From an uncultured Spirochaetota bacterium (GTDB taxonomy: Bacteria > Spirochaetota > Brevinematia > Brevinematales > JAOACQ01): a stretch of DNA of 64,000 bases. The notes beneath the pieces are model-generated. The model was not told where the DNA came from and did no database searches. It worked only from the letters and a program-made list of their open reading frames with translations. Shown here in pieces: positions 6,278-60,638 of the stretch. Where the stretch lies: positions 256,001 through 320,000 of the forward strand of contig CAWIGG010000002.1 in NCBI GenBank assembly GCA_963835575.1, read 5' to 3'. The position numbers were made by a program, and so were the translations under genes. Positions within the stretch are counted from its first letter, which is position 1. The number at the start of each line of letters is the position of its first letter.

Positions 6278-8116
6278 ATGAAAACAAGTGGAAAAATCCT
6301 GGTAAGATTATCGATTGTTGCCGCGGTTGTTTTGAGCTTTATTGTTTTTACAGCCTGCTCTCTTCAAAATCCCGACAACAACGGCAGTACAACTGTCCAG
6401 AACAGTACAACACAGACAAGGGCTTTTGCCGGGATGACGGAAGCGCTTACATTCTTTCACGCCAATTATTGCGGCTCAGGCCAGACCGTTTCCTGGAGAA
6501 GCAACTGTCATATGGGCGACAATCCCACCGGCGGTTACCATGACGCCGGCGACCACGTGAAGTTCAATCTTCCCGCGGCTTTCATGGCATCGATGCTCTG
6601 CTGGGCCGATTATGAATACGGCGGATTTTCAGCAGACGCGGAAATTTCAAGGGCCCTCAGCTATCTGAGCGCATGCTGGAACGGCAGCACTTATATCTAT
6701 CAGGTGGGCGACGGCGGTACAGACCATGCCTACTGGGGTTCTCCCGAACTTCAGACCGGTGCAAGGCCGTCATACAGCACGACCCAGGCTTCAGCCGCAA
6801 TGGCGCAGGCCGCCGCTGCTTTCGCGCTGGCCTCTATTACCGGCCATACAGGCGGCAATATCAATACTGCAAAATCCCTTTTTACAGCCGCTGACAACGC
6901 AAAGAGTGATGCCGGGTATGCAGCAGCCGCTAATGGTTATTATACATCAGGCGGATTCTATGACGATTTGATGTGGGCCGCTGTATGGCTCTATATTGCC
7001 ACAAGCGATTCGTCTTATCTGACAAAGGCTGAAGGCTATTACAGCAATCTGAATGCCGATATCATCTGGACACATTGCTGGGATGATTCTCGCTACGGCG
7101 CCATCCTGAAGCTCGCCCAGCTGACCGGCAAATCGGTCTATATCAACCGGGTCGAAACCAACCTTGACTGGTGGCAGAAAGGCACCAGCGGCGGTATTAC
7201 CTATACGCCCGGCGGACTGCCCTATCTGAACAACTGGGGATGCCTGCGCTATGCTTCTGCCGAAGCTTTCCTGGCCAAGATATGGGCCGATTATACATCA
7301 TTGGGCACTGCCAGCAAGAAAGCCGGCTATAAGACTTTTGCCAACAATGTGCTCAATTATATTGAAGGATCCAATCCTCAGAGTGAATGCTACATTATCG
7401 GTGTTGGAAGCAAATACCCTCAGTGTCCTCACCACCGTGCGGCAAATCCGGGCAAGACTTGCCCTTCATTGCATGTGCTCACAGGAGCCATGCCCGGCGG
7501 GCCTGATTCAGGTGATAACTTTGTCGATGATCCGAATCAGTACCAGTATACTGAACCTGCTATCGACTACAACGCATGTCTTGTTGCCGCTCTCGCGGCC
7601 GCAAACGGCACGCTGAAATCCCATAATTATTCCTCAGCCAGCAGTTCTTCGACAGCTTCGAGCCAGGCTAGCGTCGCTTCTTCAGCGGCAGTTAGCTCCA
7701 GCCGTTCGAGTGTTGCTTCTTCTGCTGCTGTAAGTTCCAGCCGTTCAAGTGTTGCATCCAGTGCGGCGGCTTCCAGTACAGCTGCCTCATCAGGCGGTTA
7801 CGCTGTGAATTATACTGTTAATAATGACTGGGGTGCGGGCGCAACATGCACAGTGACCATCAAGAACAACAGCGCTACAGCAGTGAATGGATGGACATTA
7901 GTCTGGACATTCGCCGGCAATCAGACGCTGACGCAGATTTGGAACGCGACATATACTGCGAGCGGCGCAACAATTACTGTTAAGAATGCAAGCTTTAACA
8001 ATATCATCGGCGCGAGCGGCGGAACGCAGAGCTTCGGCTTCAATCTGAGCTACAGCGGTTCGAACGCCAAACCGGCTTCGTTCACATTGAACGGAACGGC
8101 ATGCACAACATATTGA
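6278..8116 (+). CDS. GH9 endoglucanase lipoprotein with Ser-rich linker and C-terminal CBM2
   Basis: GGYHDAGDHVKF, PHHR, TEPAIDYNA; CBM2 NDWGAG...WTLVW...QIWNA...SFGF...NGTAC; lipobox FTAC; SD AAGGAGG. Confidence 0.93.
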   Translation: MKTSGKILVRLSIVAAVVLSFIVFTACSLQNPDNNGSTTVQNSTTQTRAFAGMTEALTFFHANYCGSGQTVSWRSNCHMGDNPTGGYHDAGDHVKFNLPAAFMASMLCWADYEYGGFSADAEISRALSYLSACWNGSTYIYQVGDGGTDHAYWGSPELQTGARPSYSTTQASAAMAQAAAAFALASITGHTGGNINTAKSLFTAADNAKSDAGYAAAANGYYTSGGFYDDLMWAAVWLYIATSDSSYLTKAEGYYSNLNADIIWTHCWDDSRYGAILKLAQLTGKSVYINRVETNLDWWQKGTSGGITYTPGGLPYLNNWGCLRYASAEAFLAKIWADYTSLGTASKKAGYKTFANNVLNYIEGSNPQSECYIIGVGSKYPQCPHHRAANPGKTCPSLHVLTGAMPGGPDSGDNFVDDPNQYQYTEPAIDYNACLVAALAAANGTLKSHNYSSASSSSTASSQASVASSAAVSSSRSSVASSAAVSSSRSSVASSAAASSTAASSGGYAVNYTVNNDWGAGATCTVTIKNNSATAVNGWTLVWTFAGNQTLTQIWNATYTASGATITVKNASFNNIIGASGGTQSFGFNLSYSGSNAKPASFTLNGTACTTY

Positions 8117-8159: not shown

Positions 8160-8196
8160 AAAAAAGGCCTCCCTATAATGAGGGAGGCCTTTTTTT
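8160..8196 (+). terminator. Rho-independent terminator (intron target)
   Basis: AGGCCTCCCT-ATAATG-AGGGAGGCCT followed by a T tract. Confidence 0.9.
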
Positions 8197-8199
8197 ATT

Positions 8200-9077
8200 G
8201 TGCGCCCGGCAGGGCGCACGTTCTTGCGGGTGAAAGTCCCGTATGCACCCGGTAAGGGGAATCCCTCACCAGTTTGTGAACTTCTCCGGGCAGCCGGACA
8301 AACTGGTGAGGGACAGACGGCAAGGGTGTCCGCCGTGAGGCGGAATCTGAAGGAAGCTGCAGGCAAAGCACTGGTCTGACGAACAGAAACCGCATAGAGG
8401 CGGCACTGCTGGGTGAGACGGCAATTATCGTTAAAGCCCGATACTTACACAGAAAGCAATGACGTAGATGCGGCAGACATAAGTGTGAAGGAACGAGCGC
8501 ATTACCCGGGGAGGTCTGACAGCCTGCCACATATTGGCTATTGTCATCGAAAGGTGATAAGAGGGGTTTTCAGAAGTCAGCAGAAGCCATAGTAACCTCT
8601 TGACCGGAGGCGAAGGGCAGAACCAAACTATAGGAGTACCGCTATGAATCCTGACACGGTAACTTACGCAGAAGCGGAAGGAAACTTTCCGGCTTTGACA
8701 AAGGATAGGGACGGAATTCCGAAGAATAGCCAAAGCGCGTGTATCCGTGCAGAGAGTCAAAGAAGGAGTACACCGGATGAAACAAATTTAATAGAGCGTC
8801 TGGTCAAACGCGAGAACATGCTGGAAGCTTATCACAGGGTGGTAAGCAATAAGGGGGCGGCGGGAGTTGACGGAGTCACTGTAAAACAGCTAAAAGGCTT
8901 CATCAACAAACATATGAACATCGCCTTTCCTAAGAAATTATTCGACAGTATGGGACTCGTATCGATGCTGAACAAGATTTGTATTTATCAGAAATTATAT
9001 TTTGGAACCGCCGTATACGGAACCGTACGTACGGTGGTGTGAGAGGTCGGCGGGTGTAAACCCGCCTCCTACTCAAT
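8200..9077 (+). mobile_element. Class IIC group II intron, copy 1, with internally deleted RT/maturase ORF
   Basis: 5' GTGCGCCCGGCA; domain I motifs GGGTGAAAGTCCC, GCAAGGGTGTCC, GGAATCTGAAGGAAGC; TTACCCGGGGAGGTCT; domain V GAACCGCCGTATACGGAACCGTACGTACGGTGGTGT (CGC triad); domain VI ending CCTACTCAAT; directly after a terminator. Confidence 0.93.
8644..9042 (+). pseudogene. Intron-encoded protein remnant: RT0 region fused in frame to maturase (X) C-terminal tail
   Basis: ENMLEAYHRVVSNKGAAGVDGVTV joined to HMNIAFPKKLFDSMGLVSM; no PQG or YADD motif. Confidence 0.85.
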
Positions 9078-9272: not shown

Positions 9273-9475
9273 AACGCTGGCGAATTGTCATTTTTTGATT
9301 GGGATAAATCCCTGATTATATCTCGTTTTTAATTATATATAAATTTAATATAAAAAGGAGGAAATGATGGGAAAAACTTAAAAAAATAACAGGTCTGAAT
9401 AAAAAAGTTTAAAGTGTTAGTAAGAGCTTTATGAAAAGGTTATTACCTTTCATGAAGAAAAGTAAGGAGGAAAAG

Positions 9476-11869
9476 ATGAAGTCAAAAGTAAGAATCGGAT
9501 TAAAACTTCTGGCTGTTGTTTCCATTGTTTTGAGCGTTATTATTTTTGCCGCCTGTGCGCTTCAGAATCTTGACAACTCTAACGGCAGTACAACTGTCCA
9601 GAACAGTACAACACAGACAAGGGCTTTTGCCGGGATGACGGAAGCGCTTACATTCTTTCACGCCAATTATTGCGGCTCAGGCCAGACCGTTTCCTGGAGA
9701 AGCAACTGTCATATGGGCGACAATCCCACCGGCGGTTACCATGACGCCGGCGACCACGTGAAGTTCAATCTTCCCGCGGCTTTCATGGCATCGATGCTCT
9801 GCTGGGCCGATTATGAATACGGCGGATTTTCAGCAGACGCGGAAATTTCAAGGGCCCTCAGCTATCTGAGCGCATGCTGGAACGGCAGCACTTATATCTA
9901 TCAGGTGGGCGACGGCGGTACAGACCATGCCTACTGGGGTTCTCCCGAACTTCAGACCGGTGCAAGGCCGTCATACAGCACGACCCAGGCTTCAGCCGCA
10001 ATGGCGCAGGCCGCCGCTGCTTTCGCGCTGGCCTCTATTACCGGCCATACCGGCGGCAATATCAATACTGCAAAATCCCTTTTTACAGCCGCTGACAACG
10101 CAAAGAGTGATGCCGGGTATGCAGCAGCCGCCAATGGTTATTATACATCAGGCGGATTCTATGATGATCTGATGTGGGCCGCAATATGGATTTATCTTGC
10201 CACAAGCGACACCAACTACCTGAACAAAGCAGAATCTTATTATACTAATTTGAACTCCGATATCATCTGGACACATTGCTGGGATGATTCCCGCTACGGC
10301 GCCATCCTGAAGCTTGCCCAGATTACCGGAAAGAAAGTCTATATCAACCGGGTCGAAACCAACCTTGACTGGTGGCAGAAAGGCACCAGCGGCGGTATTA
10401 CCTATACGCCCGGCGGACTGCCCTATCTGAACAACTGGGGATGCCTGCGCTATGCTTCTGCCGAAGCTTTCCTGGCCAAGATATGGGCCGATTATACATC
10501 ATTGGGCACTGCCAGCAAGAAAGCCGGCTATAAGACTTTTGCCAACAATGTGCTCAATTATATTGAAGGATCCAATCCTCAGAGTGAATGCTACATTATC
10601 GGTGTTGGAAGCAAATACCCTCAGTGTCCTCACCACCGTGCGGCAAATCCGGGCAAGACTTGCCCTTCATTGCATGTGCTCACAGGAGCCATGCCCGGCG
10701 GGCCTGATTCAGGTGATAACTTTGTCGATGATCCGAATCAGTACCAGTATACTGAACCTGCTATCGACTACAACGCATGTCTTGTTGCCGCTCTCGCGGC
10801 CGCAAACGGCACGCTGAAATCCCCTGTTTATCCGACACCCACTCCGCCCCCGGTAAGTGCGGTTGGGACTGGAACTGGATTAACAGGCACATATTATGCT
10901 AATATGAATTTAACTGCTCCTGCTGCTTATTCTGAATTAGACACAAACATTAACTTTAACTGGAATGGCTCTGCACCCGCTACCAATATGCCTGCAACAT
11001 CATGGTCGGCTAAGTGGACCGGTTATATTCAGGCCAGAATGTCGACAACATATACTTTCCATCTTCTGTCTGATGACGGATCTACGCTGACTATTAACAA
11101 CGTTTCAGTCATTTCCGACTGGACAGATCATGCCAATGATGCGCAGTATAAAACTTCTGGAACAATTGCTATGACTGCAGGTACGCTTTATCCAATCACC
11201 GTAACTTACTATCAGGACGGTGGTTCGTCGGCTATTACCTTGAGCTGGGAAAATGGATGGCTGGCTGAAGAAGTTGTTCCGACAACCCAGCTGTATCCTT
11301 CAACGAATGGTACTAGCAGCAGTTCCAGTGTTGCTTCTTCAGTTGCAGCAAGCTCCAGCCGGGCAAGCAGTGTAGCTTCTTCTGTTGCAGTATCCAGTGT
11401 TGCTTCTTCAGTTGCGGTGAGCTCCAGCCGGTCGAGTGTAGCTTCTTCTGTTGCAGTATCCAGTGTTGCATCCTCAGTTGCGGTGAGCTCCAGCCGGTCG
11501 AGCGCCGCTTCAAGCGCGGCGGCTTCCAGCACAGCTGCCTCATCAGGCGGTTACGCTGTGAATTATACTGTTAATAATGACTGGGGTGCGGGCGCAACAT
11601 GCACAGTGACGATTAAGAACAACAGCGCGACAGCCCTCAGCAGCTGGTCTCTTGTCTGGACTTTTGCAGGCAACCAGGCTATAACCCAGATATGGAGCGC
11701 CAGTCAGACTACCAGCGGTGAAACAGTGACTGCCGTGAATTTAAGCTACAACGGTACGATCGGCGCTAACGGCGGTACGCAAGCTTTCGGCTTTAATCTG
11801 AGCTACAGCGGCGCGAACGCCAAGCCGGCCGCATTTACTTTGAACGGAACGGCATGCACACTCTATTAG
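9476..11869 (+). CDS. GH9 endoglucanase lipoprotein with PA14 domain, Ser-rich linker and CBM2
   Basis: Same GH9 motifs as 6278-8116; PA14 GTGLTGTYY...INFNW...WSAKWTGYI...SDDGS; SD AAGGAGG before ATG 9476; lipobox FAAC. Confidence 0.92.
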   Translation: MKSKVRIGLKLLAVVSIVLSVIIFAACALQNLDNSNGSTTVQNSTTQTRAFAGMTEALTFFHANYCGSGQTVSWRSNCHMGDNPTGGYHDAGDHVKFNLPAAFMASMLCWADYEYGGFSADAEISRALSYLSACWNGSTYIYQVGDGGTDHAYWGSPELQTGARPSYSTTQASAAMAQAAAAFALASITGHTGGNINTAKSLFTAADNAKSDAGYAAAANGYYTSGGFYDDLMWAAIWIYLATSDTNYLNKAESYYTNLNSDIIWTHCWDDSRYGAILKLAQITGKKVYINRVETNLDWWQKGTSGGITYTPGGLPYLNNWGCLRYASAEAFLAKIWADYTSLGTASKKAGYKTFANNVLNYIEGSNPQSECYIIGVGSKYPQCPHHRAANPGKTCPSLHVLTGAMPGGPDSGDNFVDDPNQYQYTEPAIDYNACLVAALAAANGTLKSPVYPTPTPPPVSAVGTGTGLTGTYYANMNLTAPAAYSELDTNINFNWNGSAPATNMPATSWSAKWTGYIQARMSTTYTFHLLSDDGSTLTINNVSVISDWTDHANDAQYKTSGTIAMTAGTLYPITVTYYQDGGSSAITLSWENGWLAEEVVPTTQLYPSTNGTSSSSSVASSVAASSSRASSVASSVAVSSVASSVAVSSSRSSVASSVAVSSVASSVAVSSSRSSAASSAAASSTAASSGGYAVNYTVNNDWGAGATCTVTIKNNSATALSSWSLVWTFAGNQAITQIWSASQTTSGETVTAVNLSYNGTIGANGGTQAFGFNLSYSGANAKPAAFTLNGTACTLY
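11320..11540 (+). repeat. Imperfect ~60-bp tandem repeats encoding Ser/Ala/Val linker
   Basis: Repeated SSVASSVAVSSSRSSVASSVAV units. Confidence 0.8.
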
Positions 11870-18727: not shown

Positions 18728-18875
18728 AGCCACAGAATGGATTCGACAGGCTCACCACAAGTGACACAGAATATCACGGAATTCTAGTATATTGGTAGTG
18801 TCAGAAACAATATTCTGCATTTTGCTTTTCCTAATGTTGATTTTTTTCAGTGGACTTCTGTGAAATTCTGCGGCT
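18728..18875. repeat. 9-bp-periodic inverted-repeat element with inserted 25-bp module
   Basis: AGCCACAGAA[TGGATTCGACAGGCTCACCACAAGT]GACACAGAATATCACGGAA ... TTCAGTGGACTTCTGTGAAATTCTGCGGCT. Confidence 0.75.
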
Positions 18876-34643: not shown

Positions 34644-34653
34644 GGGAATAACG

Positions 34654-34770
34654 GCCACGGAATTTCACAGAATGACGCAGAATTCGGAGCTATTGGAAAG
34701 CATCATGGCTTCCTTTTATAGCTCTTTATCAGGCGAATTATTTCAGTATATTTCCGTGAAATTCTGTGGC
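34654..34770. repeat. 9-bp-periodic inverted-repeat element (CACAGAA type)
   Basis: GCCACGGAATTTCACAGAATGACGCAGAA ... TTTCAGTATATTTCCGTGAAATTCTGTGGC. Confidence 0.8.
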
Positions 34771-34843
34771 TGAATTATTTGATTATTTTTAACGCCTGTC
34801 TTATAATATTGACCTTAAATACCGGATTGAAACGGAGGATTCT

Positions 34844-54638: not shown

Positions 54639-54667
54639 AGGGCTGCATGTAATTGCAGCCCTATTTT
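54639..54667. terminator. Intrinsic terminator after fabH (intron target)
   Basis: AGGGCTGCA-TGTAAT-TGCAGCCCT-ATTTT. Confidence 0.85.
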
Positions 54668-54670
54668 ATT

Positions 54671-55548
54671 GTGCGCCCGGCAGGGCGCACGTTCTTGCGG
54701 GTGAAAGTCCCGTATGCACCCGGTAAGGGGAATCCCTCACCAGTTTGTGAACTTCTCCGGGCAGCCGGACAAACTGGTGAGGGACAGACGGCAAGGGTGT
54801 CCGCCGTGAGGCGGAATCTGAAGGAAGCTGCAGGCAAAGCACTGGTCTGACGAACAGAAACCGCATAGAGGCGGCACTGCTGGGTGAGACGGCAATTATC
54901 GTTAAAGCCCGATACTTACACAGAAAGCAATGACGTAGATGCGGCAGACATAAGTGTGAAGGAACGAGCGCATTACCCGGGGAGGTCTGACAGCCTGCCA
55001 CATATTGGCTATTGTCATCGAAAGGTGATAAGAGGGGTTTTCAGAAGTCAGCAGAAGCCATAGTAACCTCTTGACCGGAGGCGAAGGGCAGAACCAAACT
55101 ATAGGAGTACCGCTATGAATCCTGACACGGTAACTTACGCAGAAGCGGAAGGAAACTTTCCGGCTTTGACAAAGGATAGGGACGGAATTCCGAAGAATAG
55201 CCAAAGCGCGTGTATCCGTGCAGAGAGTCAAAGAAGGAGTACACCGGATGAAACAAATTTAATAGAGCGTCTGGTCAAACGCGAGAACATGCTGGAAGCT
55301 TATCACAGGGTGGTAAGCAATAAGGGGGCGGCGGGAGTTGACGGAGTCACTGTAAAACAGCTAAAAGGCTTCATCAACAAACATATGAACATCGCCTTTC
55401 CTAAGAAATTATTCGACAGTATGGGACTCGTATCGATGCTGAACAAGATTTGTATTTATCAGAAATTATATTTTGGAACCGCCGTATACGGAACCGTACG
55501 TACGGTGGTGTGAGAGGTCGGCGGGTGTAAACCCGCCTCCTACTCAAT
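54671..55548 (+). mobile_element. Class IIC group II intron, copy 2 (apparently identical to copy 1)
   Basis: Same sequence as 8200-9077 at offset 46471; three overlapping ORF translations are identical. Confidence 0.93.
55115..55513 (+). pseudogene. Intron-encoded protein remnant (RT0 + X tail), copy 2
   Basis: Identical 132-aa translation to 8644-9042. Confidence 0.85.
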
Positions 55549-60506: not shown

Positions 60507-60557
60507 TTTTCTTTTAAATTTGCCACAGACATAGAGGGAATAAAAAGGTTCATGAAC

Positions 60558-60638
60558 AGCCACAGAATTTCACAGAAACACACAGAAATAAATAAATTTA
60601 AAAAACGGTTCCGTGTCCTTCGGTGTCATTCTGTGGCT
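60558..60638. repeat. 9-bp-periodic inverted-repeat element (CACAGAA type), followed by further half-arms to ~60726
   Basis: AGCCACAGAATTTCACAGAAACACACAGAA ... TTCCGTGTCCTTCGGTGTCATTCTGTGGCT. Confidence 0.8.

Follow-up and report, generated by a model that had tools for sequence, protein, structure and literature searches.

Class IIC group II introns without a reverse transcriptase core, and their probable spread in trans, in an uncultured Spirochaetota bacterium

How does an intron that lacks the catalytic core of its reverse transcriptase (RT) come to stand, without a single difference, at two places in one genome? The question is raised by a window of 64,000 nucleotides from an uncultured Spirochaetota bacterium (assembly GCA_963835575.1, contig CAWIGG010000002.1, positions 256,001 to 320,000), in which an 878-nt element occurs twice. 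The original prediction for this DNA held that both elements are class IIC group II introns with the same deletion, mobilized in trans by a full-length relative. We regard spread in trans by the protein of an intact parent as the best explanation, at a probability of about 0.7; it draws on the observed anatomy of the copies, their single deletion junction, their independent terminator sites and the presence of the parent, together with precedent. The two copies, m2 and m3, and their parts are located in the window as follows.

8160..8199, plus strand: terminator-like hairpin, T-run and IBS1 (ATT), target of m2; 45-mer at -28.3 kcal/mol; 83 nt past the GH9-CBM2 stop
8200..9077, plus strand: m2, mini class IIC group II intron, 878 nt; Rfam RF02001, RF01998 and RF00029; identical to m3; parent minus nt 709-1755
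8262..8316, plus strand: host palindromic repeat of 55 nt in m2, standing in for 11 ancestral nt of domain I
8423..8425, plus strand: EBS1 (AAU) in the Id3 loop; pairs with the final bases of the 5' flank (IBS1)
8644..9042, plus strand: remnant open reading frame (ORF) of 132 aa, in frame; parent residues 1-88 fused to 438-481; no RT core
8907..8908, plus strand: deletion junction; 1047 nt removed; near-microhomology of 4/5 nt
9007..9038, plus strand: domain V (Rfam), CGC triad at 9009-9011
9040..9077, plus strand: domain VI and 3' end, bulged A at 9071
54639..54670, plus strand: terminator-like hairpin and IBS1 (ATT), target of m3; -18.1 kcal/mol; 53 nt past the fabH-like stop
54671..55548, plus strand: m3, mini class IIC group II intron, 878 nt; same Rfam matches; parent minus nt 709-1755
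54733..54787, plus strand: palindrome in m3, identical by comparison with m2

Alignment of m2 with m3 reveals no difference over 878 nt, and identity continues beyond the intron for 7 nt upstream and 2 nt downstream. The genes 5' of the introns are unrelated, one encoding a GH9-CBM2 glycosidase (m2) and the other being fabH-like (m3), in agreement with the prediction of identical copies with precise ends in unrelated flanks. Assignment to class IIC, also predicted, is borne out as well: RF02001, RF01998 and RF00029 each exceed the gathering score in both copies, which start with GTGCG (the GUGYG of class IIC), end with AAT, and carry the CGC triad of domain V and, seven bases before the end, the bulged A of domain VI. 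Retained in the mini RNA are the ends, EBS1, domains II, III, V and VI, and the first part of domain IV. The 132-aa remnant matches TIGR04416 weakly, over residues 57-92 only.

The assembly (4.39 Mb in 7 contigs, 94% complete) was searched with BLASTN, TBLASTN and motif scans for class IIC copies with both ends, and 11 were found, comprising seven minis, one full-length parent (FL_A), two full-length copies of a second lineage (B) and one ORF-less mosaic on contig C3. Five minis therefore lie beyond the window, and both the additional copies and the full-length parent with YADD that the original prediction led one to look for are present. Four minis (m1-m4) are identical; m5 departs from them at nt 263; m6 is one C short in a CCC run, possibly through a sequencing error; and m7, of 834 nt, differs by one substitution and in the segment 63-117. 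All seven lack parent nt 709-1755 (1047 nt, 349 codons) with one common junction, which lies at window 8907/8908 in m2 and 55378/55379 in m3, so the shared RT-core deletion noted in the two window copies extends to the whole family. It is in frame, leaving a 132-codon fusion ORF without the catalytic core, and its two edges are alike at 4 of 5 nt. Template switching by the RT is unproven as the cause, and DNA slippage fits as well; the GsI-IIC enzyme is described as switching templates end to end, with one base pair (10.1101/792986).

Outside the deletion, 1 nt separates FL_A (C5:157091-155167, 1925 nt) from the window copy. The 481-aa protein of FL_A has an intact YADD, scores above the TIGR04416 cut-off and finds its best match among solved structures in the GsI-IIC RT (E 5.9e-141). 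By tblastn it is the sole intact IIC protein in the assembled genome, and the RT with YADD and thumb that defines a class C protein is encoded by FL_A alone, the minis having no RT core; at 94% completeness, another driver could be missing from the assembly. The lineage B copies (C2:1738240-1736319 and C5:216722-218643) are 80% identical to FL_A and 2 nt apart from each other, and share a 4-nt frameshift that truncates the protein at 409 aa, which makes them a second instance in which a defective copy occupies more than a single site. The C3 element (C3:142173-141459) is a 715-nt ORF-less mosaic that joins a B-type domain I to a non-coding domain IV and is 3 nt short in domain V. In domain IV it shows 83% likeness to a degenerate 632-nt ORF-less intron in G006, a genome of another genus (C14:230285-230916). 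Judged from their sequences, these two are a second ORF-less lineage.

The genome also holds four near-identical group II introns with 37% identity to the IIC protein (C5:88982, C2:94982, C4:454181 and C6:410689), three of which occupy one same point of another repeated element. Their RT was considered as a driver and judged unlikely, apparently belonging to another intron class. Nine of the 11 IIC copies appear co-oriented with replication by cumulative GC skew, in which placement of the origin is uncertain. Elsewhere, a related IIC intron is found at seven contig ends of a KSB1 genome (L024, L028, L031, L051, L060, L061 and L067), which implies that many copies are unassembled there.

Class IIC introns are reported to insert after terminator hairpins (PMC4424553, PMC8643678), and this rule, which the original prediction cites for the class, holds throughout: all 11 copies follow hairpins. 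The 45 nt 5' of each copy fold at -15.4 to -28.6 kcal/mol, and 1.8% of 5000 random 45-mers reach -15.4 kcal/mol. A consensus terminator scan missed the hairpin at 8160-8199. The distance from a same-strand stop is 49-209 nt for ten copies and 633 nt for m7. The base 3' of the intron is T at 11/11 sites. The register of EBS1 was set from relatives, in which the -1 base, read by eye, is complementary in 11/12. The lineage A EBS1 is AAU, and the sites end in ATT (five), GTT (two) or TTT (one), with pairing of -1 and -2 at 8/8 sites and of -3 at 7/8; at the mini sites a terminal TT is followed by T in 7/7, and -3 pairs in 6/7. At all three sites of copies with a lineage B domain I the site is TTTA, where EBS1 predicts G at -1, so that -1 is mismatched; one relative in which this loop is the same has the site ATTG. 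This mismatch hints at homogenization after insertion. That the introns target terminators and require a protein follows from the established biology of the class.

The 1-kb flanks of the copies produce two paralogy matches, neither adjoining an insertion; copies with flanks so nearly devoid of mutual matches are not segmental duplications, and that origin is ruled out. The region orthologous to the GH9 site is absent from 4 congeners. After fabH, an intron match is found in none of the 4 congeners, in which the downstream gene order differs, so that this comparison shows absence of a match only. In G002 (C1:1208038-1208063) a terminator hairpin is followed immediately by a 19-nt stub from the 5' end of the intron, the rest of which is absent.

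Domain I departs from the class in an unexpected way. Nucleotides 63-117 of the mini belong to a family of host palindromes for which a two-mismatch pattern gives 71 copies in the genome, 10 within introns and 61 elsewhere (59 of them distinct). None of the 61 lies inside an ORF of at least 150 aa, and such ORFs make up 80% of the genome; of 12 genomes of the taxonomic family, 5 contain these palindromes. Ten of the 11 IIC copies carry the palindrome, which replaces 11 nt of domain I, and m7 has in its place 11 other nt, as do related introns of G004 and G006. A pattern admitting both states, which requires AGCC and may exclude near genomes, gave 50 matches in GTDB, 47 of them of a 12-13-nt short form; the three long ones were discounted as chance matches in unrelated DNA. 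In metagenomes the pattern for a long domain I insert had three matches, none intron-like.

The ancestral segment contributes to two conserved helices. The alignment comprised 15 short-form introns; of the 47 loci, 13 offered a distinct and complete 5' part, and the counts leave one intron out. A covarying 4-bp helix, paired in 13-14 of 14 introns, takes its 3' strand from the segment, and an invariant 3-bp helix (14/14) takes its 5' strand from it; we take these to be outer Ib and basal Ic in IIC nomenclature. Palindrome-bearing copies, m2 and m3 included, lack one strand of each. The m7 strand is complementary to the 44-47 strand common to all copies and matches the outgroups, so m7 retains the ancestral state; these two features rule out m7 as a plain deletion of the palindrome. 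In a folding model, native-like helices in the palindrome-bearing RNA cost about 27 kcal/mol. The orphaned strands 45-47 and 164-166 can pair, in a predicted 3-bp helix that would close the junction around the palindrome. Other hairpin insertions in domain I occur in 4 of 13 related IIC introns (L045, L050, L055 and L062), that of L055 presumably resembling a REP-type repeat. A large domain I insertion is reported to help mobility in a IIB1 clade (PMC12584367).

Copies of the intron have also exchanged pieces. Between lineages A and B, nt 43-158 show no difference, against 5 differences in the 42 nt before this tract and 44 in the 262 after it. The piece with the palindrome has therefore passed from one lineage to the other, probably out of A into B. 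The palindrome is identical in two lineages that are only 80% alike, and the 61 nt flanking the segment differ in 91/91 pairs of other introns (median, 10 differences). All three copies with a lineage B domain I have the same tract limits. Within lineage A, no single outgroup-rooted tree accommodates the palindrome, nt 263 and the deletion without recombination: m7 is without palindrome, A263 and deleted, m5 is G263 and deleted, and five copies share one haplotype.

Since the haplotypes require recombination, conversion could also have spread the deletion, and this is the main rival to spread in trans. Full-length introns would then have inserted independently and one copy's deletion been copied in place onto the others, perhaps favored by removal of an active RT, and the minis would never have moved. 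Acting on older full-length insertions, conversion leaves the same pattern, so identical copies alone do not show movement; the m7 and m5 haplotypes are the leftovers expected of tracts with differing left ends, the lineage B mismatch at 3/3 sites fits a change after insertion, and group II intron copies of a single bacterial chromosome are reported to have undergone a conversion of about 700 bp (c-Ha.de.I1; PMC3522654). We nevertheless consider this account unlikely: up to six separate events would be needed, each losing a 1047-nt heterology and leaving no rearrangement, five copies have one haplotype in common, and natural ORF-deleted introns with one breakpoint were mobilized in assays in Thermosynechococcus elongatus (PMC2882425). 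It is much less probable again that the copies are dead, movement having preceded a palindrome that disabled domain I and later swept 10 of the 11 copies by conversion. Loss of strands from two such conserved helices and the modeled cost of refolding speak for it, but the uniform tract limits in lineage B, the complementarity of the orphaned strands and the hairpin insertions present in related introns all speak against it.

That identity or deletion arose from repeat collapse in assembly, the test by which the original prediction might have failed, is the least credible alternative. Read contigs without differences span the junction in run X1 (8802-9003) and run X2 (8802-8989), while that of X3 ends one base short of spanning it and X3 separately contains a parent-type continuation; parent and minis are moreover assembled apart, the contigs measuring 0.5-2 Mb, and individual copies have private differences. 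For the junction, which is real DNA, the artefact is largely refuted, but at 8200 no contig of the three runs joins the flank to the intron, and for occupancy of the individual sites the assembly is the source. The runs are from one study and may include the source sample. No empty-site joints are present among the read contigs, whose depth is too low for this absence to count, and at 8462 the X1 and X2 contigs carry the parent allele G instead of the window's A. The junction pattern had 0 matches in JGI metagenomes, a search from which near records may be excluded.

Spread in trans by the parent's protein thus has in its favor one junction in 7/7 minis, four of them identical and 1 nt from the parent outside the deletion; independent hairpin sites with good EBS1 pairing; a single intact IIC protein, that of the parent; and precedent supported by a mobility assay (PMC2882425). 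Against it stand the recombinant haplotypes, the broken domain I helices, the lineage B EBS1 mismatch and the read allele at 8462. On this explanation, a single event would have removed 1047 nt from the RT gene of a full-length lineage A intron. Read-through of the terminator upstream would produce the shortened RNA, which, bound by protein from the single intact parent copy, would reverse-splice into DNA just past other terminator hairpins, followed by cDNA copying. Most of the seven copies would have arisen by such retro-mobility, with recombination between copies also shuffling them. The palindrome-bearing domain I would then be active. A bolder and more tentative proposal, which we think rather doubtful as it stands though worth stating, is that the host palindrome destroyed two helices while a new helix of orphaned strands re-closed the fold, that the intron stayed mobile, perhaps more so, and that the rewired domain may have passed by recombination into A, B and the ORF-less lineage, all of which would now depend on one intact protein. 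If true, nature would here have run a domain swap on the IIC core, and m7, which has no palindrome, would serve as its built-in control.

The closest known counterpart is in T. elongatus, in which 17 ORF-less TeI3 introns with one deletion are mobilized by driver proteins in assays (PMC2882425). As in the TeI3/TeI4 system of that paper, the breakpoints are the same in all copies, ORF remnants persist on both sides, deleted copies outnumber intact ones, EBS/IBS pairing is good and an intact relative is in the genome. TeI3 differs in belonging to class CL/IIB1, in having several diverged target families and in its broken remnant frame; the minis belong to class IIC, target terminators, are very recent, being 0-1 nt away from their parent, and have an in-frame 132-codon remnant. 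With GsI-IIC, O.i.I1 and B.h.I1 they share GUGYG, the CGC triad, a short EBS1-IBS1 pairing and post-terminator insertion (PMC4424553, PMC8643678, PMC4748821), and they are set apart by deletion of the RT core in 7 of 8 lineage A copies and by the palindrome in 10 of 11 IIC copies.

HYERs are natural ORF-less IIC introns (Liu et al. 2024, cited via PMC11754743), and the minis resemble them as class IIC ribozymes without a working RT gene. Unlike HYERs they are multi-copy, have an almost identical parent and measure 878 nt, against 0.4-0.6 kb quoted for ORF-less introns; they also keep a protein remnant, the in-frame 132 codons, and so are not introns lacking an ORF, as HYERs are defined. Nearer to the HYER type are the 715-nt C3 element and the 632-nt G006 element. 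According to a review, ORF-less introns are uncommon in bacteria and almost always occur together with a related protein, and a genome survey includes classes of ORF-less and short-ORF introns (PMC8919778). We found no report of a same-junction IIC family in the literature covered, which is weak evidence of absence. The original label of a MITE/SINE-like element stands loosely for the SINE part; the MITE analogy fails on mechanism, with no inverted-repeat pair joining the ends and no target duplication in the 12-nt flanks of the 11 sites. The mini is an element that works like TeI3, belongs to class IIC and is not a MITE.

The palindrome is like the REP-like repeats of the GTAG and CGTC families (PMC3733652) in being short and present in tens of copies outside genes, and unlike them in its longer arms of about 15-19 bp around a 20-nt loop and in having one copy inside a ribozyme core. 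The genome has two PF01797 matches (Y1 transposase), the closest listed palindrome copies lying more than 15 kb away; no RAYT driver of the palindrome was found, the repeat not flanking either match among the copies listed. A REP-like repeat replacing part of domain I was likewise not found in the literature covered, again weak evidence of absence.

Spread of an ORF-deleted intron in trans is already known from TeI3 (PMC2882425), and the family described here would add a clean and very young IIC example with its parent present (7 to 1). What appears unusual is a host palindrome in place of a conserved piece of the RNA core, the rest being of known kind. This swap matters more: since versions with and without the palindrome occur in one genome, the need of a IIC intron for particular domain I helices can readily be tested. 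The trading of domain I pieces between intron lineages, in turn, weakens any case for mobility made from identical copies alone.

Several smaller observations concern the surroundings of these elements. Two close pairs of palindrome copies enclose, respectively, non-coding DNA and a flagellin-like ORF, by eye of spirochaete type (C3:130831-131712). Tandem GH9-CBM2 paralogues bracket m2 (window 6278-8116 and 9431-11869), the second with an additional PA14 domain; they share at least 300 identical nt (6380-6679 and 9581-9880), which suggests recent conversion between them. Other short palindromic repeat families lie in the window at 2792-2823/18736-18767, 18837-18875, 34650-34772, 60555-60596 and 30905-30938/60705-60738.
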